From assembly GCA_026395435.1 (NCBI GenBank), contig JAPLYT010000006.1, forward strand, positions 31,587-95,586: a stretch of DNA of 64,000 nt, given 5' to 3'. The position numbers and the translations under genes are program-made. Numbering within the stretch: the stretch's first letter is position 1; every line of letters starts with the position of its first letter. This document shows positions 6,226 through 51,207 of this stretch, in pieces. Below the pieces are notes generated by a model. That model saw only the letters and a program-made list of their open reading frames with translations. It was not told the DNA's origin and ran no database searches. The stretch comes from Candidatus Saccharimonadota bacterium. Lineage in GTDB: Bacteria > Patescibacteriota > Saccharimonadia > Saccharimonadales > AWTP1-31.

Positions 6226-7116
6226 ATGCGAAAAATTCTTGTCGTTTTGCTCCTTATCGTGAGTATCTGTATTCCTGCGCATGCCTATGCAGAAACCAAA
6301 CTTAAGGGGCTCCAAGTATCTCCACTTCGGAGTCGCCCCGCGTTACGGCCAGGAGACACCAGCACCGGCCAGCTGTCGCTTTCTAACAATACCGATTCAG
6401 CATCTCTCGTAACGCTCTATGTAGAACGATTCCGGGTGACCGACGAAGACTACCACTATGATTTTGCACCTGGCGAACATACCGACTGGGTGCGTCTGGC
6501 CGATACCAAAATCCAGCTTAATAAAAATGAGAACAAAAAAGTAGCCTATAGTCTTGCGATCCCAAGTGATGCGCCTCCCGGTGGCTACTATTTTGCTGTA
6601 TTTGCCAGCACTGAGAGTTCCGGCTCTGGTAGCTCTTTTAAAGAAGTGAAGCGGGTAGCTTCGCTCATCTATTTAGAAGTGGGTGGCGTACTCAGCAAAA
6701 AAGTAAACCTACTGGGAACCGACGCACCTTGGTTCACCAAATCACGACAATTACGCATTGATAGTCGCCTTGCCAATCAGGGAAATACGCATGTCGAGGC
6801 CCGGCTTAAGCAATCCATCCGCCCATTCGTTGGGCCAGTGCCAGAATCGGTTCAAAAAGAAGGGCTGATCCTTCCAGGAAGTATTCGCAAACTACGTTCA
6901 ACCGTCAAAATCCCCTGGTGGCCCGGCATCTACAAACTGTCAGTAGATTATTCACCGCCGCAGGGAGGTCCCACGCAGTCCATCCGCCAAATTCTGATCT
7001 ACTTCCCTGTCTGGGCCTGGATGACGAGCCTTTTAATCTTGATACTTTTGGTTTGGCGTATTATTGGTCGAAAATTTAATCCGTCTGGGGCGCAGCGGTA
7101 TACACGACCGAGGTGA
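6226..7116 (+). CDS. DUF916/DUF3324-like cell-surface protein (signal peptide, Ig-like domain, C-terminal TM anchor), paralog 1
   Basis: I moved the start to the ATG at 6226, which gives the signal peptide MRKILVVLLLIVSICIPAHAYA. GGYYFAVF motif; C-terminal TM plus basic tail; clear paralog of 8750..9727. Confidence 0.6.
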   Translation: MRKILVVLLLIVSICIPAHAYAETKLKGLQVSPLRSRPALRPGDTSTGQLSLSNNTDSASLVTLYVERFRVTDEDYHYDFAPGEHTDWVRLADTKIQLNKNENKKVAYSLAIPSDAPPGGYYFAVFASTESSGSGSSFKEVKRVASLIYLEVGGVLSKKVNLLGTDAPWFTKSRQLRIDSRLANQGNTHVEARLKQSIRPFVGPVPESVQKEGLILPGSIRKLRSTVKIPWWPGIYKLSVDYSPPQGGPTQSIRQILIYFPVWAWMTSLLILILLVWRIIGRKFNPSGAQRYTRPR

Positions 7117-7645
7117 CATAATTTCCGGCAGGTTTTTGATTATCCAATTTAACGCCGTATGTAAAGGTTGTTGGGTCGCCGGAACTAAACGGCCCGCTTG
7201 CTGATTTAACGAGTACATTGCTGGCTGTCATTCCGATAAAGTTAGTACCCGAACCACTAGTATTGTAGCCCCATGTATTGACCGCCAAAGGCAATGAAGT
7301 TATGTTTGCGCTTGCAGGTAGTACTGCCGGGCCGTTAGTCATATCACTTGACGTCAAAGACCGTATATATAAAGTGTAGCCAACCACATCAGTTGACGTG
7401 ACAGTGACGATATTATTGCCGGTTCCTATAACGCCATTATCGTCTGGGGTAATCTGAATTGAAACATCAGCGCCCGTCGCAATCGATAAGCTTGTCTGAG
7501 AGCCGTAAGGGACGTTGGCGCCATATGTTCCTTTACCATATGGCTGTGCATATACAGCACTGTTGAACGAAAATCCGATTATACACAGAGCCATACTCAA
7601 AAATGTAATTTTGTGTACGATTTTGTGGCGAATAATGTAAATCAT
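7076..7645 (-). CDS. secreted beta-rich subunit, WxL-like or SCPU-like C-terminal strand
   Basis: ORF-track ORF 7076..7663. An internal Met start is assumed because codon 1 abuts the divergent gene. Has a signal peptide ending AVYA and ends ...AGNYVTSVVYTAAPQTD (G-x-Y then an alternating strand). Confidence 0.5.
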   Translation of the reverse strand: MIYIIRHKIVHKITFLSMALCIIGFSFNSAVYAQPYGKGTYGANVPYGSQTSLSIATGADVSIQITPDDNGVIGTGNNIVTVTSTDVVGYTLYIRSLTSSDMTNGPAVLPASANITSLPLAVNTWGYNTSGSGTNFIGMTASNVLVKSASGPFSSGDPTTFTYGVKLDNQKPAGNYVTSVVYTAAPQTD

Positions 7646-7661
7646 TGCTATCATTATAACC

Positions 7662-8681
7662 ATGTACAGTTTGAGAGTGAAAGCAAAGCGTCTTTCTTTA
7701 TGGGGATCAGCGTTCGTACTTACCGGAGTAAGTTTCTTCAGTATGGTCGTATCTGCTTCTGCAGCTCAGCTCACGACTCGTAGTTTCACCCTTGGAAGCA
7801 CTCTAGCATCGGCAGCTACTTCTTATACGCTGAACTTCACAACCGGAACTACTGCTACATTCCAATCTTTCCAGGCACAAATGTGTACGACTGCATCTGG
7901 AACATGTACGACCCCAACCGGTTTTAGTGTCAGCTCACCAGGTTCTACATTCACTTCTACGACCTTGTCTGGCTCATGGACTGTTAGCAACGCTACTGCT
8001 GGCAGCTTGCGTGCTTCGGCAACCGGTGCGTCAAGCACTACTAGTGGCGCGGCTAAGCAAATAATTTTTGGAAGTGTCACCAACCCAAGTGCTACCAACA
8101 GTACATTCTATGCCCGAATAACACTTTACTCTGACGCTGCCTGGACAACAGCTGTAGACACTGGAACAGTAGCCTCTTCAACAGCAGGTCAAATTACGGT
8201 TACAGCAAGTGTCGATGAAACACTAACCTTTACGCTCGCCAGTGCTACTGTAGCGCTTGGTACGCTCAGCACCAGTAGCACCGGTTCAGGGACTTCCACG
8301 ATGACTGCATCCACGAATGCATCAGGAGGTTATGCTATTACCGTCAACGGGACTACGCTTACCTCAGGAGCAAATACCATAGCAGCCATGGCTGCTAACG
8401 CTGCTTCTTCCCAAGGAACTGGTCAGTTTGGCATCAACTTGAAGGCAAACACGACACCAAGTGTCGGATCGAATGCAAGTGGTGCAGGTTCAGGTGTTGC
8501 TGCAACCAACTACAACACCGCTGATTCATTCCGTTTTGTCACCGGTGAAACTGTGGCATCTGCTTCTGCCGCAACCAATAGCAATACGTTCACCACTAGC
8601 TACATTGCCAACATTGGCGGAGTGCAGGCACCAGGGTCATATAGCACTACGCTGACCTATATTGCTACTGCAACCTTCTAG
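7662..8681 (+). CDS. 339-aa secreted Thr/Ser/Ala-rich WxL-like surface protein
   Basis: Signal peptide ...MVVSASAAQ. The second half follows the WxL-domain layout (VDETLTFTLASATVALGTL...GGYAITVNG...FGINL...APGSYSTTLTYIATATF) but lacks the Trp residues. Confidence 0.5.
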   Translation: MYSLRVKAKRLSLWGSAFVLTGVSFFSMVVSASAAQLTTRSFTLGSTLASAATSYTLNFTTGTTATFQSFQAQMCTTASGTCTTPTGFSVSSPGSTFTSTTLSGSWTVSNATAGSLRASATGASSTTSGAAKQIIFGSVTNPSATNSTFYARITLYSDAAWTTAVDTGTVASSTAGQITVTASVDETLTFTLASATVALGTLSTSSTGSGTSTMTASTNASGGYAITVNGTTLTSGANTIAAMAANAASSQGTGQFGINLKANTTPSVGSNASGAGSGVAATNYNTADSFRFVTGETVASASAATNSNTFTTSYIANIGGVQAPGSYSTTLTYIATATF

Positions 8682-40749: not shown

Positions 40750-42633
40750 CTATCGTACGAGTCTATTCAGGCCGTTTCGAGCCAAGCCGCCCCATTCAAC
40801 AACGGTAAAGCCATTTCGTTTCGGCGTTTTGAGCGTTTGAGCTGGCATGTTAACAGGTTTCTGAAGCCCTTCGAAGTCGAGGAATACGCGGATGGTGGTG
40901 TCGGGTTTTGGAAGGACGGTCAGCGGTGCAAGCTCATTGAGCTGGCGAGTGCTGAGCCACGATAGACGGACAAAAGGCGTGTTCGGGAGGTTTGGTTTCC
41001 AGAAACTAATGAACTCAGTTATTTCACGCCCCTGCAGCCCTTGTTGCTTGAGTTGTTCGGTGATTGTAGCAATTGCTTTACTTCGAGCCACCACAGTGCC
41101 GCTGGTGATGTCAGGATAGGCACCGTTGCCTTGTCCCTCCCAGAAGAGCGATCCAAACGATTTTCCTTGGTAGGTGAGAGCGCCATTTGGCTGAGCCAAA
41201 ACATTCGTCCATCCGCCTGTAGGATACAAAGGATCAGAAATGGTCACATTTGCTCCTACACTAACTGATACATTAGTTGCTTTTTGCGGGTAGAGATACA
41301 CAACTGGCTTGGCGCAACCACCTTTTGGTGCAGCTTTATCGCTTATGTACACCATGAAGTCGCCGAGGCCGTTTTCGATCAAGAAATATGAATGCTTATC
41401 GACGAACTGTTGAAGCGAGAGATTCTTGTAGTCATCCAGGGCATTTTCTTTGGCGTAGTCTTTTTCGAACAGCTCAGTCACAATTGGCTGGTTATTTGCG
41501 AGTTGGTAGACGGTCTGACCGCCCGGAGTCTTCCCGACTTCACTGAGGTCAGACTTACTGACTTTACCTGCCACAAATGAAGCACCCGTACCACACCCTT
41601 GGCCACCCGTGTAATAGGTCGAAGTCGATTGATCGCCTTTACTCCACTTGATGGTTTCTGCGGCTTTTGAACCTGATTTGCTGAGTTCCCCATCGAGCGA
41701 ATAATTGTAACTAAACAGATCTCCGAAGTAGGCGTTCACGCTTTTGATTGAATAGGCACCTTTGTCTTTCTCGCCGACATAGTAATCAATGTTGTTTTTG
41801 GTAATAAGTTTGGTGCCTTTTTCTGGAGACTGTACTTCCAAAATATTTGTACCTTCCTTATATCGCAGAAAGGCAAACGTTAGAACGCCGCTCGTTTTTA
41901 GCGGTTGTTCTTTGATGGTGATCGTTGGGTCAGCCGTCAATTCACTCAGACTAGTCGATGAGCTCGTCTTGATATTAGGTTTTGCTTCGAAGTATGAATA
42001 GTCTTTAGCAAAGTTCGCGGGAAATGCCACTTCGTACTCTGAACCATTTTTTATGACAATAATATCGGCAGCATCAATACCTCCCGAGGCACGGTAGGCA
42101 ATAATGTCTTTTCCATCTTTTGTTTTGCCCACCAGGAAGCTCTTTGTGAAATTATTTCTTCCATTTGTGCACCCTTCTGTTCCGGTGCATTCATCTTGAT
42201 TGAATAGGATAAGGTCTTTAATCTCCGTAGGTTTGGCATAATAGGTGTTGCCATTAACGGTAATATCATCTGAAGAAGGCTTCGTCTTGACGGTATCTGC
42301 TGTGGCAGTATCTTTTTTGGAATTTGAAACAGATGCTGGCGTATCTTTTTTACCACCTAAGACAACAATACCAACCACTGCTGCGATAATCGCAACAACA
42401 AGTATGCCTATGCCTATTTTTTGACTCTTAGAAAATCTTGATAGAAATGATTTCTTCTTGGTTACTTCTTTAGCCGGTTCCGCGCTTGGTGCTGTAGGAG
42501 TTTCTTCGACTGGTTCTTCTGGCGCGGTCTCGTCAATTATAACCTCAGGTTCTGTATCGTGAACCGGTGGTTCATTTTCTGTCTTAGTCTCGTCGATTAC
42601 TTCGTCGACAGCTGGTTTTTTGTCGTTGTCCAT
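40750..42633 (-). CDS. membrane-anchored extracellular protein of unknown function (627 aa)
   Basis: Acidic N-terminal cytoplasmic region, one TM, and a large ectodomain. The C-terminal module carries GCAKPVVYLYPQ...GGWTNVLAQPNG...LFWEG. No family assigned. Confidence 0.55.
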   Translation of the reverse strand: MDNDKKPAVDEVIDETKTENEPPVHDTEPEVIIDETAPEEPVEETPTAPSAEPAKEVTKKKSFLSRFSKSQKIGIGILVVAIIAAVVGIVVLGGKKDTPASVSNSKKDTATADTVKTKPSSDDITVNGNTYYAKPTEIKDLILFNQDECTGTEGCTNGRNNFTKSFLVGKTKDGKDIIAYRASGGIDAADIIVIKNGSEYEVAFPANFAKDYSYFEAKPNIKTSSSTSLSELTADPTITIKEQPLKTSGVLTFAFLRYKEGTNILEVQSPEKGTKLITKNNIDYYVGEKDKGAYSIKSVNAYFGDLFSYNYSLDGELSKSGSKAAETIKWSKGDQSTSTYYTGGQGCGTGASFVAGKVSKSDLSEVGKTPGGQTVYQLANNQPIVTELFEKDYAKENALDDYKNLSLQQFVDKHSYFLIENGLGDFMVYISDKAAPKGGCAKPVVYLYPQKATNVSVSVGANVTISDPLYPTGGWTNVLAQPNGALTYQGKSFGSLFWEGQGNGAYPDITSGTVVARSKAIATITEQLKQQGLQGREITEFISFWKPNLPNTPFVRLSWLSTRQLNELAPLTVLPKPDTTIRVFLDFEGLQKPVNMPAQTLKTPKRNGFTVVEWGGLARNGLNRLVR

Positions 42634-43892: not shown

Positions 43893-45653
43893 TTAGTTAG
43901 CGGTCCATGTGGCATTATCGAAGTAAGCTGCCACACCCGAGTTGGCGGTGACGATGACTTGCAGACGAGCTTTTTTAACGTTAATGCTTGAAGGAATGTA
44001 ATTAAAAGAGACAGATGATACACCTACGCTTGTTACGGATTTTTTGAATTGACCACTAATCCAGACTCCGTTGGCGTCATATTCATCGATATAATAGCCA
44101 ATTTCTCCACTTACGTTCTGCGTAATATTCAAGTAGCTACCGAGACTATATGTTTTACCTGCTTCAATTACGACTGAATTGGAGAACAAATGTCCATTGG
44201 TCGTCGATGCAGCGAGACTGACAGAGATGACGATATTCTCAGGGCTTCCATGAGAGGCAGTGTCAAGCAAGATTGCTGACGGTTTATCGGTCGACCAACC
44301 TGTTAGGCCAGAGTCAAAAGAACTATTTGTCAGCAAATTGGTCGGACTCACTGGAGGAACGACGCTTGTGACTGTAAACCATTGAGCAGTATCAATATAT
44401 GCCGAAATACCACTGTTGGCTGCTACGCCAATTTGTAGTCGAGCCGAAGTCACCCGGGACGAGGTGGGGCTGTAGGCAAAGTTTATCGCGTCTACAAATA
44501 CGCTTCGCTGAGATGCCTTGAATTGACCACTAATCCAGACTCCGTTGGCGTCATATTCATCGATATAATAGCCAATTTCTCCACTGGCAAGGGCAGTCAT
44601 ATTAGAATAATTTTTTATCAAATAGTTTGAGCTATAGGTAACAGGAACTTTTGCAGAAAAGAGGTGTCCTTTTGCCGACCCAGCCGTCACTTTGATCGAA
44701 TTTGTTGGTTCAGGATAGCTGCCGTTATTTAGATTGTTGGGAGCAAAGACGGTCGTTGAGTCAGATGACCAGTTTGTAAGGCCGCTTGCGAAATTACCAT
44801 TTGCCAGAAGATTTACGTCTCCTTTTACTAAGGCATTACTCACCGTGGGTGCTGCAACACCTTTTAGTTTTGCATAGGCAGCAATTTGATCAAGTTTAGC
44901 GGTCGAATATTCATAATCATCATTATTGTTGCTGGCTTTCGTTTTGATATCGTGGAATACCAAGATGAGCCACTGTTTGTTCGCAACAGCGCTGTCTATG
45001 TAAGATTTTACGGTAGCGACAGATACAGTCCCTTGCACTTGTTGAACCCGGAGGAGATATTCACTGTAGGGCCAGGTGTTATAGCCAAGATCTGCAAAGC
45101 CACGTTGTGATTCGTAGTATTTAGCAATGTGAGCTAACGTGCTGGCGTTATAGTCACCATAGGGGCTGGCATACGATTTGGCGTCGATACCATGGCTAGC
45201 GAGTGCAGCTTTGCTGGTCACAAGTTCACTAACGACTTGGTCTTGGGTAAGGGCGATGGGTTGATCGACAGGATCGGTGGAAGCCATATATGGATGAGTA
45301 TTAGTATGTGAGCCAAGTTCCCAACCATAGGTAGCTTTGAGGGTAGTAATTTGATCCCACGTAAGATACGAGGCATCGGTATTCGCTTTACACGTATTAG
45401 GTATCGTCGCCATGCCGACACAATTGGTGATGACATAGTTGGTGCCACTATAGCCATATTTTGCCAGAGTCGGAGCTGCTTGGGTGAGGCTGCTGGCCAG
45501 GCCATCATCAAATGTGAAAGACACTTTAGCTGCCGCCGTCGGGTTCGTTACTGCTGCCTGAGCGTGGCCGACTATACCGACAATCGGCAAGCTACATAGT
45601 AGGCAGGAAATAAGAACTTGGAAAGTTGTTTGTAATTTTTGAGTAAATTTCAT
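43893..45653 (-). CDS. secreted polysaccharide deacetylase (CE4/NodB) with two tandem CBM4_9-like modules
   Basis: Signal peptide, then the NodB motifs VSFTFDDG and WELGSHTNTHP. Two repeats begin NLLANGNFASGLTNWS and NLLTNSSFDSGLTGWS, and each contains GEIGYYIDEYDANGVWISGQFK. Confidence 0.8.
   Translation of the reverse strand: MKFTQKLQTTFQVLISCLLCSLPIVGIVGHAQAAVTNPTAAAKVSFTFDDGLASSLTQAAPTLAKYGYSGTNYVITNCVGMATIPNTCKANTDASYLTWDQITTLKATYGWELGSHTNTHPYMASTDPVDQPIALTQDQVVSELVTSKAALASHGIDAKSYASPYGDYNASTLAHIAKYYESQRGFADLGYNTWPYSEYLLRVQQVQGTVSVATVKSYIDSAVANKQWLILVFHDIKTKASNNNDDYEYSTAKLDQIAAYAKLKGVAAPTVSNALVKGDVNLLANGNFASGLTNWSSDSTTVFAPNNLNNGSYPEPTNSIKVTAGSAKGHLFSAKVPVTYSSNYLIKNYSNMTALASGEIGYYIDEYDANGVWISGQFKASQRSVFVDAINFAYSPTSSRVTSARLQIGVAANSGISAYIDTAQWFTVTSVVPPVSPTNLLTNSSFDSGLTGWSTDKPSAILLDTASHGSPENIVISVSLAASTTNGHLFSNSVVIEAGKTYSLGSYLNITQNVSGEIGYYIDEYDANGVWISGQFKKSVTSVGVSSVSFNYIPSSINVKKARLQVIVTANSGVAAYFDNATWTAN
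44046..44584. repeat. 66-nt exact intragenic repeat (44046..44111 and 44519..44584)
   Basis: gaattgaccactaatccagactccgttggcgtcatattcatcgatataatagccaatttctccact is present twice, once in each CBM-like module. Confidence 0.9.
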
Positions 45654-45772: not shown

Positions 45773-47452
45773 GTGATTGTAATCATGCTTGGCTTCGTAT
45801 GTATTATTACTGCAGTTGGCCATTACAGAAGTACTCCGCAGTCTGAGCAACGTGCTACTACATCATCGAAAAAAGATCGCTATATGGACCTTTCGTCTTG
45901 GAAGTATGTCCCCGGAGCTCGAGTTGCATCAGATGGTATTTTGATCACTCCTCAAGATCTAAAAATCGTTAATCAAGACGGTAGTGGCGGTCAGCCAAAT
46001 CCAGCGATCAATAGTGGTGGTCAATTCATTGCATATTCCGACGAAGTATCAATCAGCGCCACCATGACCGCTGCCGCGCAACATGCCGAACAGTCACTAC
46101 GACTTTACAGCCAGCCACCTGGCATCTATGACGAATGGCGATGGGAGCCACCAAGCCTCGACATTGTGTTACGCGGAAACGAACTAACACTCAAAAACTA
46201 TGATGGCACCAAAGAGACTCCCGATACAACAAAGTACCCTATCATGCAGGCGTCGCTATATCAGTTAGAAATGAAGAAAAACAGGACGATGCTCGATCTG
46301 TATCTGAACAACAAGCGGGTTGCTTCGGTGGATGGGAGCAGCCTCTATGTGACAAAAAAAATATGGTTTGGTGCATCGGCTGTTTCGCCGTGGAAACTGA
46401 TCGCTATTTCAATTCCCAATACTTCTAAGGCACGATTCCAAGATTCGTTGCCCTCGCCCAAGATGCAATCGAGTAGTCAGAGCTTAGGAACACTAATGGC
46501 TACTAAAAATAAAAAATTCGGAACGGCAATCAGCCTCAACCCTCTCATTGCCGATGTCGAGTATCAAAAATTGGCACTAACTGAGTTTAGTCAGTTTACT
46601 CCTGAAAATGAGCTCAAAGCGCAGTTTGTTCATCCAGCTCCACATAGTTACGAATTTGGACCAAGTGATCTACTCGTCAACATTGCCGAGCATCATGCCA
46701 TCTCAATCCATGGTCATGCGTTGGTTTTTGGTGAGGCGAACCCTGCTTGGATGCAATCAGCAAAGCCAGAACTACGCGAACAAATAATGGTCGACCATAT
46801 TACTTCCATCATGAAGCATTATAAAAAATCAATTTTAGAGTGGGATGTCATCAACGAACCGCTTTCGGATAATGATGCCGACTATGCTGATGGCGGCAAT
46901 GGGCTGCGGCATCATATCTGGTATCAAGCAATGGGCGAGAGTTATATCGCTAAGGCACTCCGCGCTGCTCGATTAGCTAACCCACAAGCTAAGTTGTATA
47001 TCAACGACTATGGCTTGGAAGCCGATGGTGATCGCTGGGAGGCGATGATTTCGCTCATTACGCGGTTGCAAGCAGACAATGTGCCTTTAGACGGCATTGG
47101 GTTTCAGTCGCATGTCTATCAGCCCGCTGACCATCAGGAATATGCAGTTATTGCTCGCCACATGAAGCAACTTGAAAGCCTCGGATTATCAACTAGAATT
47201 TCAGAAATTGATGTGCATGGCGAGGATCAAACGGTCCAGGCCCAGCAGTACACGTTCGCCCTTCAGGCCTGTTTAGTGAGCGTTAATTGCACGAGTTATT
47301 CTATGTGGGGTATGAGTGATGCGCATGGCTCAACGACGTCAGACCATACATATCCTCTCGAATATGGTGATGATTTACCCTGGGATGAAGCGTATAAGCC
47401 CAAACTAGCAGTGGCTAAAATCCGCGAAATGTTACAAGCCAAAAATAGGTAA
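45773..47452 (+). CDS. membrane-anchored GH10-like glycoside hydrolase with ~230-aa unknown N-terminal domain
   Basis: N-terminal TM. The catalytic half carries TPENELK, HGHALVF, WDVINEP (acid/base), LYINDYGLE, GIGFQSH and ISEIDVH (nucleophile). Confidence 0.75.
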   Translation: MIVIMLGFVCIITAVGHYRSTPQSEQRATTSSKKDRYMDLSSWKYVPGARVASDGILITPQDLKIVNQDGSGGQPNPAINSGGQFIAYSDEVSISATMTAAAQHAEQSLRLYSQPPGIYDEWRWEPPSLDIVLRGNELTLKNYDGTKETPDTTKYPIMQASLYQLEMKKNRTMLDLYLNNKRVASVDGSSLYVTKKIWFGASAVSPWKLIAISIPNTSKARFQDSLPSPKMQSSSQSLGTLMATKNKKFGTAISLNPLIADVEYQKLALTEFSQFTPENELKAQFVHPAPHSYEFGPSDLLVNIAEHHAISIHGHALVFGEANPAWMQSAKPELREQIMVDHITSIMKHYKKSILEWDVINEPLSDNDADYADGGNGLRHHIWYQAMGESYIAKALRAARLANPQAKLYINDYGLEADGDRWEAMISLITRLQADNVPLDGIGFQSHVYQPADHQEYAVIARHMKQLESLGLSTRISEIDVHGEDQTVQAQQYTFALQACLVSVNCTSYSMWGMSDAHGSTTSDHTYPLEYGDDLPWDEAYKPKLAVAKIREMLQAKNR

Positions 47453-47578
47453 GCATAAGCATTCATATAATATATTTTACAATTAGTCATTTAAGATATA
47501 TAATCCACGATATTGGTATGAGTTGATAAGGTGAGGCTTACATCTTGTATCGACACCTATTAAACAAGGAGAGATGGT

Positions 47579-47749
47579 ATGTACGGAAAAGTACTTTCAG
47601 CTGCAGTATTATCTGCAGCAGTCATCCTACCTAACACTGGCTCTAGCCGAACCATGTCGATCGTTAGTATCGTCGTCGTTACGGTTGGTGCAGTAGCAAT
47701 CGCTACTACAGTAGGTAGTGCTATCGCTAAACGAGTCTTCAAGGCTTAA
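47579..47749 (+). CDS. 56-aa mini-protein made almost entirely of an N-terminal hydrophobic segment plus an LPNTG sorting signal
   Basis: Below the track's size cut-off. SD AAGGAGAG (47566..47573) precedes the ATG at 47579. Sequence: MYGKVLSAAVLSAAVI-LPNTG-SSRTMSIVSIVVVTVGAVAIATTVGSAIA-KRVFKA. LPNTG lies at 47627..47641, followed by a TM helix and a basic tail, directly upstream of a sortase. Confidence 0.6.
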   Translation: MYGKVLSAAVLSAAVILPNTGSSRTMSIVSIVVVTVGAVAIATTVGSAIAKRVFKA

Positions 47750-47765
47750 GCGGTGCAATAAGGGA

Positions 47766-47794
47766 CTGGTCATTCAGGTAATCTGGATGACCAG
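47766..47794 (+). terminator. strong hairpin between the mini-LPXTG gene and the sortase (possible terminator/attenuator)
   Basis: CTGGTCAT...ATGACCAG forms an 8-bp stem, extended by an inner CAG/CTG pair, and is followed by TTTCACATTTT. Confidence 0.4.
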
Positions 47795-47819
47795 TTTCAC
47801 ATTTTAGAATTGAAACATC

Positions 47820-48413
47820 ATGCACAGACATATAAAACTTGTTATTGGATTAGTAATAATTATTACAGGATCAGCCGTATTGATCCATGCGCGGCAGAAC
47901 ATTGTTGCGACCAAGACACCGACGTTGGTTCAAGATCAGCCAATTATCACAAAAACAGTAGTTGCTCAGCCGAGCGCGACTCGCCCAACCCCTTCACCTC
48001 TATCAGGAAATGCACGCCGACTTATTATCCCTAGTGTTAATATCGATATAGCGGTTGTTGATGGTTATTACAATCAAGATTCTCAGACATGGACACTAAC
48101 GAGCGACAAAGCTCAATTTGCGACACCGACTCGTAAACCAAATAATGAATCTGGCGGAACATTCATTTACGGCCACAATAATCGAAAAGTATTTAGCCGG
48201 CTACCTGATATCAAGATTGGGGCAATGGCGAGTATTCAGACCGATAACGGCCATACATTTACCTACCGCTATGAAAAAGTTGATGTGGTAAATCCTTCTG
48301 ATAGTGGAATTCTGGCATATACTGGGCCGCCCATTTTGACTGTCCAAACCTGCACTGGATTTTGGTATCAAAATAGATCATTGTTTACGTTTGTTCTGGT
48401 AGAGGCATCATGA
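47820..48413 (+). CDS. sortase family transpeptidase
   Basis: N-terminal TM, catalytic His in FIYGHNN, and the TLxTC-type motif LTVQTCTG. 197 aa. Confidence 0.85.
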   Translation: MHRHIKLVIGLVIIITGSAVLIHARQNIVATKTPTLVQDQPIITKTVVAQPSATRPTPSPLSGNARRLIIPSVNIDIAVVDGYYNQDSQTWTLTSDKAQFATPTRKPNNESGGTFIYGHNNRKVFSRLPDIKIGAMASIQTDNGHTFTYRYEKVDVVNPSDSGILAYTGPPILTVQTCTGFWYQNRSLFTFVLVEAS

Positions 48414-49687
48414 ATTTCATCCAGACGTTTTTGATTTATGTATTTTTGATTGTCGGTACAATTAATTTTCTGCATCTAGGTATATTTATAATCGGTGCTA
48501 ACGTTTACGATATTCAACATCTTCGAAAACGTAAGATTTTGAAAGCACGCCGCATTGGCAAAAGCCCTCTGTTGAGTTTGGTAATTCCTGCCTACAACGA
48601 AGAGGCTAGTATTATTCGTTGCTTAGAATCAATTCGGAAAAATACGTATCGTAAAGTAGAAGTTTTCGTACACAACGATCGCAGTACGGATAACACAGCA
48701 GCTTTAATTCGGAAGTACATAGAACAACACCCTCATATGAACATCCGTTTGGTGAGTCGAAGAAAGCAAGTCGGCAAGGCTTTGGGCGTCAACTATTGTA
48801 TTAAGAAATATGCACAAGGCGAGCTGGTGATGACCTTAGACGCCGACTGTACTTTGGATCGATATGCCATCAAAAACGCAGTCGATTATTTCAAGAATCC
48901 TGATGTGATCGGTGTTGCTGCAAACGTGAAGATCACTAATGAACCTACTGTCATCGGTCTCCTTCAACAGTTTGAACATCTCATTGGCTATCGATCAAAG
49001 AAATTTTTTACTGTTACGAACTGCGAAATCATTGTTGGAGGTGTAGCCTCGACCTATCGGACCGAAGTGCTCAAAAAAGTTAAATTGTATGACACCGACA
49101 CACAAACTGAAGACATTGGCTTGAGTATGAAAATCGTTGCAAATTCCAATAAGCAGCAAAGAATTGTCTATGGTGCAGATGTGCTGGCTCTGACCGACCC
49201 CGTGCATAGCTTTAAGGCGCTGCAGATCCAGCGGTATCGTTGGAAACTAGGCATGATTCAAAACCTCATAAAATACCGATACTTGGTTGGAAATATGAAT
49301 TCGAATTATAGTAAAAGCCTGACCTTGTATCGCTTGCCGATGGCCTTTTTCTCAGAGCTAACACTTTTGTTTGAGCCATTTATTTTGGGCTATGTACTGT
49401 ATCTTTCAATAATTCATGATACGGCCATCTTGTTTGTTGGGGCCTATTTTACCGTTTGCTTGTATATCCTAATGGGTATTTGGCCTGATGAGCATTTGAG
49501 CGTTTCGGATAAGATTGCAAAAAGTTTTTACGTACCAATTTTGTATTTTACGTTTCATATCATGGACCTTATACAGGTGCTCGCAATTATCCAAGTGCTT
49601 CGTAATCCCAAAAAAGCACTACGTATTGGCTACCATGATTCGCATTGGACGCCACCTGCTCGTGTGCCGGTTTCGAACGTGAGTTAG
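48410..49687 (+). CDS. processive family-2 glycosyltransferase (PgaC/IcaA/NodC-like membrane synthase)
   Basis: ATGA overlap with the sortase stop. Motifs are VIPAYNEE, TLDADC, TEDIGLS and Q-x-x-RW as LQIQRYRWKLG. TM helices lie at both ends. Confidence 0.8.
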   Translation: MNFIQTFLIYVFLIVGTINFLHLGIFIIGANVYDIQHLRKRKILKARRIGKSPLLSLVIPAYNEEASIIRCLESIRKNTYRKVEVFVHNDRSTDNTAALIRKYIEQHPHMNIRLVSRRKQVGKALGVNYCIKKYAQGELVMTLDADCTLDRYAIKNAVDYFKNPDVIGVAANVKITNEPTVIGLLQQFEHLIGYRSKKFFTVTNCEIIVGGVASTYRTEVLKKVKLYDTDTQTEDIGLSMKIVANSNKQQRIVYGADVLALTDPVHSFKALQIQRYRWKLGMIQNLIKYRYLVGNMNSNYSKSLTLYRLPMAFFSELTLLFEPFILGYVLYLSIIHDTAILFVGAYFTVCLYILMGIWPDEHLSVSDKIAKSFYVPILYFTFHIMDLIQVLAIIQVLRNPKKALRIGYHDSHWTPPARVPVSNVS

Positions 49688-51207
49688 AAATCGTTGAGGA
49701 CGGTAATATGAGCTCCGATGGCGTTGAGGCGCTCGGCGATATCTTCATAACCTCTGTTGATAGTATAGACATTGCGCAAGATTGAGGTGCCTGGTGCAGC
49801 CAACATCCCAATAAGCAGTAAACTGGCTGGGCGAAGGGCAGGTGGACAGACTACATCGGCTTTGGTGAACTTAGTCGGTCCAGTTACGTATATACGATGC
49901 GGGTCGGCAAGTTCGACGTTGGCTCCAATCTTGGTAAGTTCTGTGTAGTAGATCGCTCGATTTTCAAACATCCAGTCGTGGATCAGGGTGCGGCCTACGG
50001 CGATTGCTACAATTGGCACAAAATATGGGATATTATCGGGGTTAATGCCGGGCCACAGGGCAGGGTGGAGTTTGTCTTTGAGTGCGTGAAGCGACCCGTT
50101 GTGTTTCTGGATTTCGAGGTCAACTAGATCGATCTCGCCGTTAAGGGCCTTATACCGCTCAGTCATCGTAAACTGGAGTCCCATAACTTTAAGCTTGAAA
50201 AGTTCTAGTGCAATCCAATCCACTGGTACTCGCTTGATCGTAATATGTGAGTTCGTGGTCACGGCTGCGGAGATGAAGAACATGGCTTCGATTGGATCTT
50301 CAGTCGGCGCGAAAGTAATATTCTTTTTAATGACCGGTACACCGCGAACCGTCAGTACTGACGATCCGATTCCAGATATCTTGACGCCAATTTTTTGCAA
50401 GAAGTAACACAAATCCTGGACCATATAATCCGCACTCGCATTTTGAATGATTGTGGTACCTTCGAACCGGGCCGCGGCCATCAGCGCGTTGTTAGTAACG
50501 GTATTTCCAGCCTCATAGAGTACAACTCTTTGAGTAGGGAGATGCTTCTTGATCGAAACCTTATAATGTCCGGTAACAGCTTTGATATCCACTCCAAAAC
50601 TCTCGAGCGCCAAAAGATGAGGCTCTACCGAACGAGTTCCGAGCTTACAGCCGCCTGCATACGGAATCTCGAACGATGTGTAATCATGAAGCAGTGGGCC
50701 AAGTAACATCAGAACACTACGTGTTTTTCGGGCAGAAACAGCGTTGATTGCCTTAAGGTTCAACTTCTCAGGCCGGCGGAGCTCAATATCGTTCCCGGTA
50801 AGCCATTTGACCTTGACGCCAATACTTTCTAGTACTTCAATAATCCGGTTTACTTCCTCAATTCGCGGGAAGGACTTAAACCGAGTGACTCCATAGTTGA
50901 GCAAACTGGCACAGAGTAGGGCGACGGCTGCGTTTTTACTCGTTTTAAGCGTGATATCACCACGTAGTTCGTGACCGCCTTCGATCCGGAGGTTCACGCC
51001 ACCTTCACCGATTTGGATTAATGGCTTGTTGAGCACATCGCTGATCCGACCAAGGGTCTCGAGGCTTAAGTTTTGTTTGCCGTGTTCAATGCGATTTACT
51101 GCCGATTGACTGGTGCCAAGCCGTTTTGCGAACGCTGCTTGGGTAAGGCCCCTTTCTTGTCGTATCTGGTAAATAAGGTTGCCGATTTTTTCATTGGTTG
51201 TTGTCAT
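49684..51207 (-). CDS. murA: XRE-type HTH domain fused to UDP-N-acetylglucosamine 1-carboxyvinyltransferase
   Basis: The first ~65 aa are IRQERGLTQAAFAKRLGTSQSAVNRIEHGKQNLSLETL (HTH_XRE). The remainder aligns along its length with MurA, including KNAAVALLCASLL, the active-site loop YAGGCKLGTRSVEPH (Cys retained) and a C-terminal NRGYEDIAERLNAIGA. Confidence 0.8.
   Translation of the reverse strand: MTTTNEKIGNLIYQIRQERGLTQAAFAKRLGTSQSAVNRIEHGKQNLSLETLGRISDVLNKPLIQIGEGGVNLRIEGGHELRGDITLKTSKNAAVALLCASLLNYGVTRFKSFPRIEEVNRIIEVLESIGVKVKWLTGNDIELRRPEKLNLKAINAVSARKTRSVLMLLGPLLHDYTSFEIPYAGGCKLGTRSVEPHLLALESFGVDIKAVTGHYKVSIKKHLPTQRVVLYEAGNTVTNNALMAAARFEGTTIIQNASADYMVQDLCYFLQKIGVKISGIGSSVLTVRGVPVIKKNITFAPTEDPIEAMFFISAAVTTNSHITIKRVPVDWIALELFKLKVMGLQFTMTERYKALNGEIDLVDLEIQKHNGSLHALKDKLHPALWPGINPDNIPYFVPIVAIAVGRTLIHDWMFENRAIYYTELTKIGANVELADPHRIYVTGPTKFTKADVVCPPALRPASLLLIGMLAAPGTSILRNVYTINRGYEDIAERLNAIGAHITVLNDF

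Follow-up and report, generated by a model that had tools for sequence, protein, structure and literature searches.

A candidate minimal LPXTG substrate encoded with a sortase and a polysaccharide synthase in Saccharibacteria

A stretch of 64,000 nucleotides from a Candidatus Saccharimonadota bacterium (GenBank assembly GCA_026395435.1, contig JAPLYT010000006.1, positions 31,587 to 95,586 of the forward strand), referred to here in its full length as the window, encodes a 56-amino-acid (aa) protein with an LPNTG motif, followed by a sortase and a synthase-type family 2 glycosyltransferase (GT2). The locus raises the question of what a sortase might transfer from such a short protein, and why its gene should adjoin that of a polysaccharide synthase. 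We read the small open reading frame (ORF), with a probability of roughly 0.4, as encoding the precursor of a minimal dedicated sortase substrate, belonging to an envelope-glycan module conserved in Saccharibacteria that combines a CE4 deacetylase, the mini-LPXTG protein, the sortase and the GT2. A preliminary description of the window had proposed a Shine-Dalgarno (SD) sequence, an LPNTG mini-ORF, a hairpin, a sortase and a GT2 starting in an ATGA overlap, all of which were recovered where it had placed them or close by. The features of the operon are as follows (TM, transmembrane).

47476..47504, + strand, sigma-70-like promoter TTTACA-17-TATAAT, 11/12 positions, consensus match only
47566..47573, + strand, SD sequence AAGGAGAG of the mini-gene, 7 nt 5' of the ATG at 47579
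47579..47749, + strand, mini-LPXTG gene (56 aa), from the ORF listing and translation
47579..47626 plus LPNT, + strand, predicted transferred N-peptide (LPNTG is encoded by 47627..47641)
47642..47746, + strand, TM helix and KRVFKA tail of the mini-protein, with a 26-residue hydrophobic stretch
47762..47777 / 47783..47798, + strand, 16-bp stem-loop in the gap between mini-gene and sortase, putative attenuator or leaky terminator
47820..48413, + strand, membrane-anchored sortase (197 aa) without class assignment, PF04203 with 64.9 bits against a cut-off of 26.6
48410..49687, + strand, synthase-type GT2 (425 aa), PF00535, PF13641 and PF13632, its start overlapping the sortase stop in the 4-nt ATGA

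The mini-gene and its family

The mini-protein reads MYGKVLSAAVLSAAVI-LPNTG-SSRTMSIVSIVVVTVGAVAIATTVGSAIA-KRVFKA, its sortase motif being followed by a TM helix and then a basic tail. It has the layout of an LPXTG sorting signal (pentapeptide, hydrophobic segment and positive C-terminal tail) and no passenger domain, just 16 residues standing before LPNTG. The LPXTG anchor model TIGR01167 scores 13.8 bits on it, under the cut-off of 15.9, and PF00746 gives no match; two of the ten family members tested pass TIGR01167, with 17.2 and 16.1 bits. Pfam and NCBIfam (release 20) hold no family model that matches the mini-protein, returning only weak generic LPXTG-anchor matches, and the matches to TraA, SepZ and DUF202 were rejected as spurious and driven by hydrophobicity. 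The 64-kb window contains no other credible LPXTG-type ORF, and no sortase besides the neighbouring one. The ORF had been thought to be unannotated, which proved wrong, as public records already call it, though without an assigned function: a 98%-identical protein on GCA_037131795.1 is listed as "hypothetical protein WCO19_02320", and the ENA and JGI gene callers call the mini-gene too. The nine-gene neighbourhood of the window recurs on GCA_037131795.1 and on the ENA and JGI contigs, and protein searches assign the window to Candidatus Saccharibacteria.

Judging from its relatives, the mini-ORF is very probably a genuine gene that is under purifying selection and encodes a sortase substrate. 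We compared 80 loci from distinct species-level genomes, fetched via an alignment of 37 sortase homologues; nearly all are labelled Saccharibacteria, Saccharimonadales or Saccharimonadia, the others being a few labelled "bacterium" or Patescibacteria and one Limnocylindria. Three loci end at a contig edge, leaving 77 that are assessable for the mini-gene, and in 75 of these a 51-63-aa ORF of the same design is kept beside the sortase, bearing out the expectation that small LPXTG ORFs would be conserved upstream of sortase-GT2 pairs in related genomes. The mini-ORF is co-directional and directly upstream of the sortase in 73 loci, each time with a GGAG-type SD sequence, and divergent on the opposite strand in loci L042 and L075. 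The four homologues found directly (48-98% identity) share the same start Met and the pattern MYGKVL...ILPNT, and in each case a sortase and a GT2 overlapping it come next. Complete Saccharibacteria genomes with the cluster include CP023991.1, OY970318.1 and OZ246417.1.

The ratio of nonsynonymous to synonymous substitution rates (dN/dS) of the mini-gene has a median of 0.13 over 50 pairwise comparisons, the N-part (0.10) being lower than the TM/tail part (0.16). A profile built from the first five sequences and searched against 1.84 billion representatives returned 56 proteins at E <= 1e-3, all of 50-139 aa and mostly of 51-62 aa. A broader profile returned 510 clusters (90% identity), the best 120 of which are 56-91 aa long; where its matches carry a name, this is "hypothetical protein" or occasionally "LPXTG-motif cell wall-anchored protein". 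As only small proteins were retrieved, the profile does not merely catch the C-termini of ordinary LPXTG proteins.

These results bear on the possibility that the ORF arose by chance or is what remains at the 3' end of a longer LPXTG gene after decay, the outcome that the preliminary description had named as fatal to its proposal. In line with it, the distant loci L079 and L082 hold, at the position of the mini-gene, an LPXTG protein of 177-183 aa with a signal peptide instead, and the mini-ORF start listed for L079 lacks an SD sequence and is internal to this longer gene. However, an intact 51-63-aa ORF is present in 75 of the 77 loci, with its own SD sequence in the co-directional ones, and together with the dN/dS of 0.13 and the profile searches that return only small proteins, this conservation refutes the non-gene reading, for which we see practically no chance. 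Because the longer proteins of L079 and L082 occupy the same position, the mini-gene may descend from such a gene, and they may resemble its ancestral state. Besides the Sec signal peptide, both proteins (L079 5354..5905 and L082 5422..5955) carry a "TNTGPGSNN" motif, and their sortase loci are the two that diverge most.

The anatomy of the family was assessed on 73 unique proteins of 51-63 aa. The N-part before the motif comprises 11-23 residues (median 18) and is composed of 23% G, 19% A, 15% V and 11% T. Neither a Sec signal peptide nor a passenger is seen in the family, in which these 11-23 residues are all that precedes the motif. A Met-Tyr start is found in 64 of the 73 proteins, and a Lys before the motif in only 31, many members having a Lys at position 4-6 and a Gly-rich N-terminus. 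The motif is LPNTG in 54 of 73 proteins and LPATG, LPKTG, LPSTG, MPKTG, LPHTG, LPNTH, LPDTG, LPTTG or LPTTS in others. The N side carries a net charge of +0.2 and the part behind the TM core one of +3.5, from which the positive-inside rule predicts a precursor with the N-terminus out and the C-terminus in; LPNTG would then lie at the outer face of the membrane with no Sec signal peptide involved.

The TM core has a median hydropathy of 2.46 on the Kyte-Doolittle (KD) scale; for the best window of up to 15 residues in the N-part, the median is 1.21, with values of at least 1.6 in 16 of 73 proteins. The N-part of the window protein ranks second in hydrophobicity among the 73, whereas the family norm is a Gly/Ala/Val/Thr-rich segment. 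The "20-residue lipophilic peptide" suggested earlier is thus a trait of the clade of the window, where it holds, and not of the family, whose median N-part hydropathy of 1.21 does not fit. The C-terminal tail AR-x-[VI]-AKK-A-[YH]-KA is conserved far beyond generic sorting-signal tails, and its AKK type occurs in 45 of 46 proteins with a PgaC-like GT2 directly downstream, compared with 1 of 13 without. Constraint on the N-peptide equals or exceeds that on the TM/tail part (dN/dS 0.10 versus 0.16), which argues against a pure decoy relying on the sorting signal alone.

In a consensus scan, the site at 47476..47504 is the only promoter-like one on the + strand upstream of the operon, and the same scan gave no promoter-like site between the hairpin and the sortase start. 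The 81-nt hairpin segment folds with -28.1 kcal/mol (z = -5.1), and none of 200 shuffles folds as well. The hairpin after the mini-gene is therefore present and strong, as previously proposed, but its extent had been given too small (47766..47794), the 16-bp stem spanning 47762..47798. In the relatives, the hairpin 3' of the mini-gene stop reaches -12 kcal/mol or lower in 71 of 77 loci and z < -2 in 62 of 77. Many show a GC stem with a U-tract, and at least 29 of 74 pass a strict terminator rule, this count being a lower bound, as the fixed window lengths under-count and the window's own hairpin was missed. The gap between the hairpin and the sortase ATG measures 21 nt and holds no promoter-like site, so transcripts reading through the hairpin most likely account for the expression of the sortase and GT2 genes. 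An Rfam search of 47350..47900 gave nothing at E <= 1 and hence no known riboswitch or leader in that region. The order of mini-gene, hairpin and enzymes would suit a layout typical of an abundant precursor placed before its processing enzymes.

The sortase, the synthase and their neighbours

The residues H119, C178 and R186 of the sortase are invariant in the alignment of 37 homologues. Its AlphaFold2 model (mean confidence score pLDDT 89) shows an N-terminal TM helix (residues 2-26), a low-confidence linker and a sortase barrel, which Foldseek matches to solved sortases with E-values of about 3e-9 to 1e-9. In the Foldseek and PDB sequence searches, classes C, E, A and D are matched weakly and about equally (15-24% identity). 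The NCBIfam sortase class models all stay below threshold, with 41-45 bits for class D (cut-offs 140-165), 28 for class GN (158), 21 for class C (160), 21 for class F (166) and 17 for class E (160). Class D, the top match although sub-threshold, is the class whose Bacillus members recognise LPNTA. Neither a DP[WFY] lid motif nor a C-terminal TM helix was found in the sequence or model, and the enzyme is thus not a typical class C pilin-polymerising sortase. In L042 (2019..2624, - strand) and L075 (6543..7355, + strand), secreted proteins adjoining the same sortase family have a C-terminus in which "APTG[AG]V..." leads into a stretch rich in Gly, Ala and Ser, then a TM helix and finally an R/K tail; this may be a non-LPXTG sorting signal.

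The GT2 carries the motifs DAD144, TED233 and QRYRW274 and one plus three TM segments (11-29, 317-335, 339-357 and 376-394), and is accordingly predicted to be a processive, membrane-embedded GT2 synthase by the general features of this group (D,D,D, QxxRW and flanking TM segments). The QxxRW synthase whose start overlaps the sortase stop was indeed found, with QRYRW274 and ATGA at 48410, but its suggested orthology to PgaC, IcaA or NodC has to be given up, all equivalog models scoring far below their cut-offs. The PgaC_IcaA model (TIGR03937) reaches 132.8 bits against a cut-off of 422.3, with residues 25-417 aligned to positions 15-405 of 407. It is followed by the model of the XrtG-associated glycosyltransferase (TIGR03111), the second-best NCBIfam match, with 99.8 bits against 363.95 (E = 1.5e-28). 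The NodC model gives 41 bits (cut-off 550), and the PgaB/IcaB models are also far below cut-off in the window. With all equivalog scores sub-threshold, the enzyme is of synthase type but no orthologue of any named enzyme. The model of the SunS-type peptide glycosyltransferase scores 20 bits and covers the GT-A part only, and a PDB sequence search with the GT2 matched only GT-A domains, which are uninformative on the polymer. In L015 (4339..5598 and 6552..7811) and also in L019 and L050, two paralogous PgaC-like GT2 genes, with 48-49% and 56-57% identity to the window GT2, flank the mini-gene/sortase pair.

The association of sortase and synthase is tight. Wherever a PgaC-like GT2 runs co-directionally with the sortase (63 loci), the spacing between the two genes is -11 to +8 nt, with an overlap in 24, and a GT2 match lies within about 6 kb of the sortase in 77 of the 80 loci. 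Where the co-directional arrangement is absent, a GT2 of the Glyco_tranf_2_3 type still adjoins the sortase, being convergent just downstream in L030, L045, L080 and others and upstream of the sortase, with the mini-gene divergent, in L042, L053 and L075. A homologue of the CE4 deacetylase is present in 64 of 80 loci. Further genes around the operon in the window are as follows.

43893..45653, - strand, secreted CE4 polysaccharide deacetylase with CBM_4_9, conserved neighbour
45773..47452, + strand, GH10-family glycoside hydrolase with an N-terminal TM segment, variable neighbour (12/80 loci)
49684..51207, - strand, fusion of an XRE-type helix-turn-helix (HTH) domain with MurA (507 aa), convergent with the GT2, PF01381 and PF00275, NF006873 with 323.7 bits
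42747..43766, - strand, GGDEF diguanylate cyclase, among the fetched loci in the closest relatives only

The HTH-MurA fusion (505-510 aa) occurs in 43 of the 80 loci and in L092-L097, and may link a DNA-binding regulator to the use of UDP-GlcNAc. The serine hydroxymethyltransferase SHMT was found in 41 of 80 loci and MurB in 26 of 80. Control of the module by cyclic di-GMP through the GGDEF neighbour was considered and rejected, as the gene is not kept beyond the closest relatives. A 627-aa membrane protein (40750..42633, - strand) has no Pfam match and, among the fetched loci, is likewise found in the closest relatives only.

As a check on ascertainment, four mini-proteins on long contigs were used as starting points instead of sortases. 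All four loci show the order CE4, mini-gene, sortase and GT2, with HTH-MurA nearby; some of their GT2s have weak or faint matches to chitin-synthase Pfam families. Just downstream of the GT2 in L094 (8191..9009) and in L096 and L097 (7206..8228) lies a Glycos_transf_4 gene (MraY/WecA-type polyprenyl-phosphate sugar-1-phosphate transferase). The coupling of the sortase to polysaccharide genes that the preliminary description had inferred therefore holds at the comparative-genomic level, with 63 of 63 tight junctions, a GT2 that is kept through rearrangement and the CE4 gene in 64 of 80 loci. A functional tie of the mini-LPXTG protein and sortase to the GT2/CE4 glycan is, in our estimate, likely.

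Possible fates of the peptide

Under the reading that we favour, the mini-gene would be transcribed from its own promoter and the hairpin would pass only part of the transcripts on to the sortase and GT2 genes; such partial read-through would leave the substrate in excess over the enzymes, as the architecture suggests. From its charge and hydropathy, the precursor would insert with its short, nearly uncharged N-tail out and its basic tail in, using neither a Sec signal peptide nor a passenger. The Pf3 coat protein inserts in this way, being a single-span protein of ~45-60 aa with a weakly charged N-tail of ~18 residues out, a basic C-tail in and no signal peptide, and its likeness to the mini-protein is an analogy of topology only.

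Sortases cleave after the Thr of their motif, form a thioester intermediate and resolve it with a primary amine. By this established chemistry, the sortase would cleave LPNTG between Thr and Gly, hold the ~20-residue MY...LPNT peptide as a thioester and pass it (~11-23 residues in the family) to a primary amine in the envelope. The candidate substrate peptide for such a reaction is SAAVILPNTGSSR, or, in an alternative form, the family consensus ...AAVVLPNTGGN. The favoured acceptor would be glucosamine that the CE4 enzyme exposes on the polymer which the translationally coupled GT2 extrudes, and a glycan amine in this role is proposed tentatively, by analogy. The more specific version, in which the sortase would N-acylate the CE4-exposed glucosamine on the nascent GT2 polymer and give a "peptido-chitooligosaccharide/PNAG" conjugate (PNAG, poly-N-acetylglucosamine), is rather doubtful. 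A glycan acceptor would, however, explain why all four genes travel together.

Several observations weigh against this reading. To our knowledge, the characterised housekeeping and dedicated sortases all anchor to peptidoglycan or protein, and a glycan amine is without precedent as an acceptor in vivo. The genes murA and murB also adjoin the cluster, which fits a peptidoglycan acceptor as well as a shared use of UDP-GlcNAc. The sortase may have substrates elsewhere in the genome, the LPXTG scan having covered the 64-kb window. The attenuation step is made less certain by the hairpin of the window failing the strict U-tract rule in the terminator scan, where no terminator was called because the U-tract is interrupted. 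Finally, the correlation between the type of the C-terminal tail and the type of the GT2 may be confounded by phylogeny.

The sortase may instead attach the peptide conventionally to the peptidoglycan cross-bridge (lipid II), peptidoglycan being the established acceptor for sortases of classes A, B, D and E. The wall would then bear an abundant Gly/Ala/Val/Thr-rich peptide of ~20 residues, and the link to GT2 and CE4 would reflect no more than a shared envelope regulon or a shared use of UDP-GlcNAc. Besides the match to the established acceptor, HTH-murA adjoining in 43 of 80 loci and murB in 26 of 80 agree with this, and the abundant-subunit design with a hairpin after the mini-gene would suit a structural wall component. 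It leaves unexplained, however, why sortase and synthase are coupled in 63 of 63 co-directional loci and why the adjacency of GT2 and CE4 persists through rearrangements, and we regard it as possible but doubtful. A different product is considered if the C-peptide that stays in the membrane, comprising the TM helix and the AR-x-[VI]-AKK-A-[YH]-KA tail, is the functional part, either as a subunit or regulator of the GT2, comparable to PgaD and IcaD, which serve PgaC and IcaA as small partners, or as a processing signal like the streptococcal C-peps. Cleavage by the sortase would be an activating or monitoring step, which covers the earlier idea that the mini-protein acts as a regulator. The tail conservation beyond that of generic sorting signals, its distribution (45 of 46 with a downstream PgaC-like GT2 versus 1 of 13 without) and the dN/dS of 0.16 for the C-part point in this direction, but the same confounding by phylogeny applies, and the N-peptide is even more constrained (0.10) and starts with "MY" in 64 of 73 proteins, unlike a mere leaving group. 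A functional C-peptide is, on balance, unlikely.

The layout of subunit, hairpin and sortase also resembles that of pilin operons, and the sortase could link successive peptides from the LPNT end of one to the N-terminal amine, or the side chain of a Lys, in the following one, giving a polymer or fibre. The best structural and sequence matches of the sortase include class C pilin sortases, and a Lys at position 4-6 and Gly-rich N-termini are found in many members. Yet class C is matched weakly (15-24% identity) and no better than classes E and A, the sortase has neither the DP[WFY] lid motif nor the C-terminal TM helix, and the substrate lacks an Ig or CnaB domain and the YPKN pilin motif, making self-polymerisation quite improbable. 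Since only 31 of 73 N-parts contain a Lys, a Lys-dependent pilin model was rejected as a general mechanism. The precursor-hairpin-enzyme layout and the strong constraint on the N-peptide would fit, in addition, an operon of the type encoding ribosomally synthesised and post-translationally modified peptides (RiPPs), with MY...LPNT freed by sortase hydrolysis or further processing and acting as a diffusible signal or antimicrobial. We give this little credence, as no transporter, immunity or receptor genes are conserved near the module in the loci examined, the conserved partners are glycan enzymes, and the GT2 resembles PgaC-type membrane synthases over its whole length, the SunS-type match of 20 bits being confined to the GT-A part.

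Relation to known systems

Dedicated sortase-substrate pairs are known from SrtB and IsdC, from a Bacillus class D sortase with the LPNTA proteins BasH and BasI, and from the class GN "marine" sortase with its single target. As in these pairs, the sortase gene adjoins that of its presumed cognate substrate, and the LPNT core matches the class D motif. The known substrates, however, have a Sec signal peptide and a folded passenger, whereas here 11-23 residues precede the motif, and the sortase fails all class cut-offs and is translationally coupled to a polysaccharide synthase. What is new compared with the known dedicated pairs is the absence of a signal peptide and of a passenger, and the coupling to a polysaccharide synthase.

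In the Nod pathway, a GT2 (NodC) builds a GlcNAc chain, a CE4 enzyme (NodB) frees an amine and NodA N-acylates it. The module shares with NodC-NodB-NodA and with the PNAG systems (pgaABCD and icaADBC) the combination of a QxxRW GT2 and a CE4 de-N-acetylase exposing glucosamine amines. The N-acylation of the amine would be the chemical precedent, with a peptidyl group replacing the fatty acyl group, but PgaD/IcaD or NodA are lacking here, the equivalog scores are below cut-off, and the proposed acyl donor would be a sortase-peptide thioester, for which no in vivo precedent is known.

The closest described architecture is the XrtG system of Firmicutes, with a Firmicu-CTERM protein, exosortase G and two glycosyltransferases (PMC12854382). 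Both systems are monoderm gene clusters that combine a PgaC-like GT2 with a sorting transpeptidase and a protein bearing the cognate signal at its C-terminus. They differ in that the enzyme here is a Cys-His-Arg sortase (PF04203) and not an exosortase, the signal is LPXTG and not Firmicu-CTERM, the substrate has no passenger, and the window GT2, with 99.8 bits against the TIGR03111 cut-off of 364, is not a member of that family. No exosortase was called in the cluster, and ten mini-proteins gave no Firmicu-CTERM match at E <= 10. The PEP-CTERM/exosortase (EpsH) system is another case in which a sorting-signal protein and its processing enzyme are genomically coupled to exopolysaccharide (EPS) genes (Haft et al. 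2006, PMC1569441). It shares this coupling with the module, but is found in diderms, uses an unrelated polytopic enzyme and has many passenger-bearing substrates; the attachment chemistry is unproven there too. In the type IX secretion system, PorU attaches the C-termini of cargo proteins in a sortase-like manner to an amine-bearing linking sugar of anionic lipopolysaccharide (A-LPS) (PMC7468200). The acyl-enzyme of a transpeptidase is there resolved on a glycan-borne amine rather than on peptidoglycan, as we propose here, although the enzyme family is unrelated, the setting is a diderm outer membrane and the cargo proteins are large.

The mini-protein family was not found in our searches of the literature on sortases or LPXTG proteins of Saccharibacteria, Patescibacteria or TM7x. 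A preprint on a "novel pilus system in CPR" (candidate phyla radiation) concerns Ig-fold Pam pilins with donor-strand exchange and was set aside as unrelated to the mini-protein. The cultured oral Saccharibacterium Southlakia epibionticum ML1, studied by transposon sequencing (Tn-seq), has two sortases, of which SEML1_0327 (1347 bp) is scored as essential, while insertions in SEML1_0711 (a 600-bp "class E sortase") give a growth advantage; its EPS genes SEML1_0081-0083 are of the Wzy/Wzx type (PMC10633639). In these data, we found no counterpart of the mini-LPXTG/GT2 cluster and neither sortase in such a context, so that no fitness data can be transferred to the locus in the window.

Sortase substrates are usually defined by three elements, namely a signal peptide, a passenger on display and the sorting signal. 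The mini-protein family, widespread and strongly conserved with about 500 clusters at 90% identity, would be the smallest natural class of sortase substrates, in which a peptide of about 18 residues, and not a folded protein, appears to be the cargo. Its association with a synthase and a deacetylase suggests that peptides are linked covalently to glycan or wall by a chemistry undescribed in monoderms. This would parallel the long-standing exosortase/EPS question in a synthetically tractable system of a 20-mer peptide and a 197-aa sortase. If the glycan is acylated as proposed, this would be the first case of a sortase acting in nature on a polysaccharide, and in bacteria unable to make fatty acids the peptide could take the place of lipid anchors or acyl decorations. 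The module would also be a conserved envelope feature of the Saccharibacteria, whose surface biology underlies their epibiotic lifestyle.

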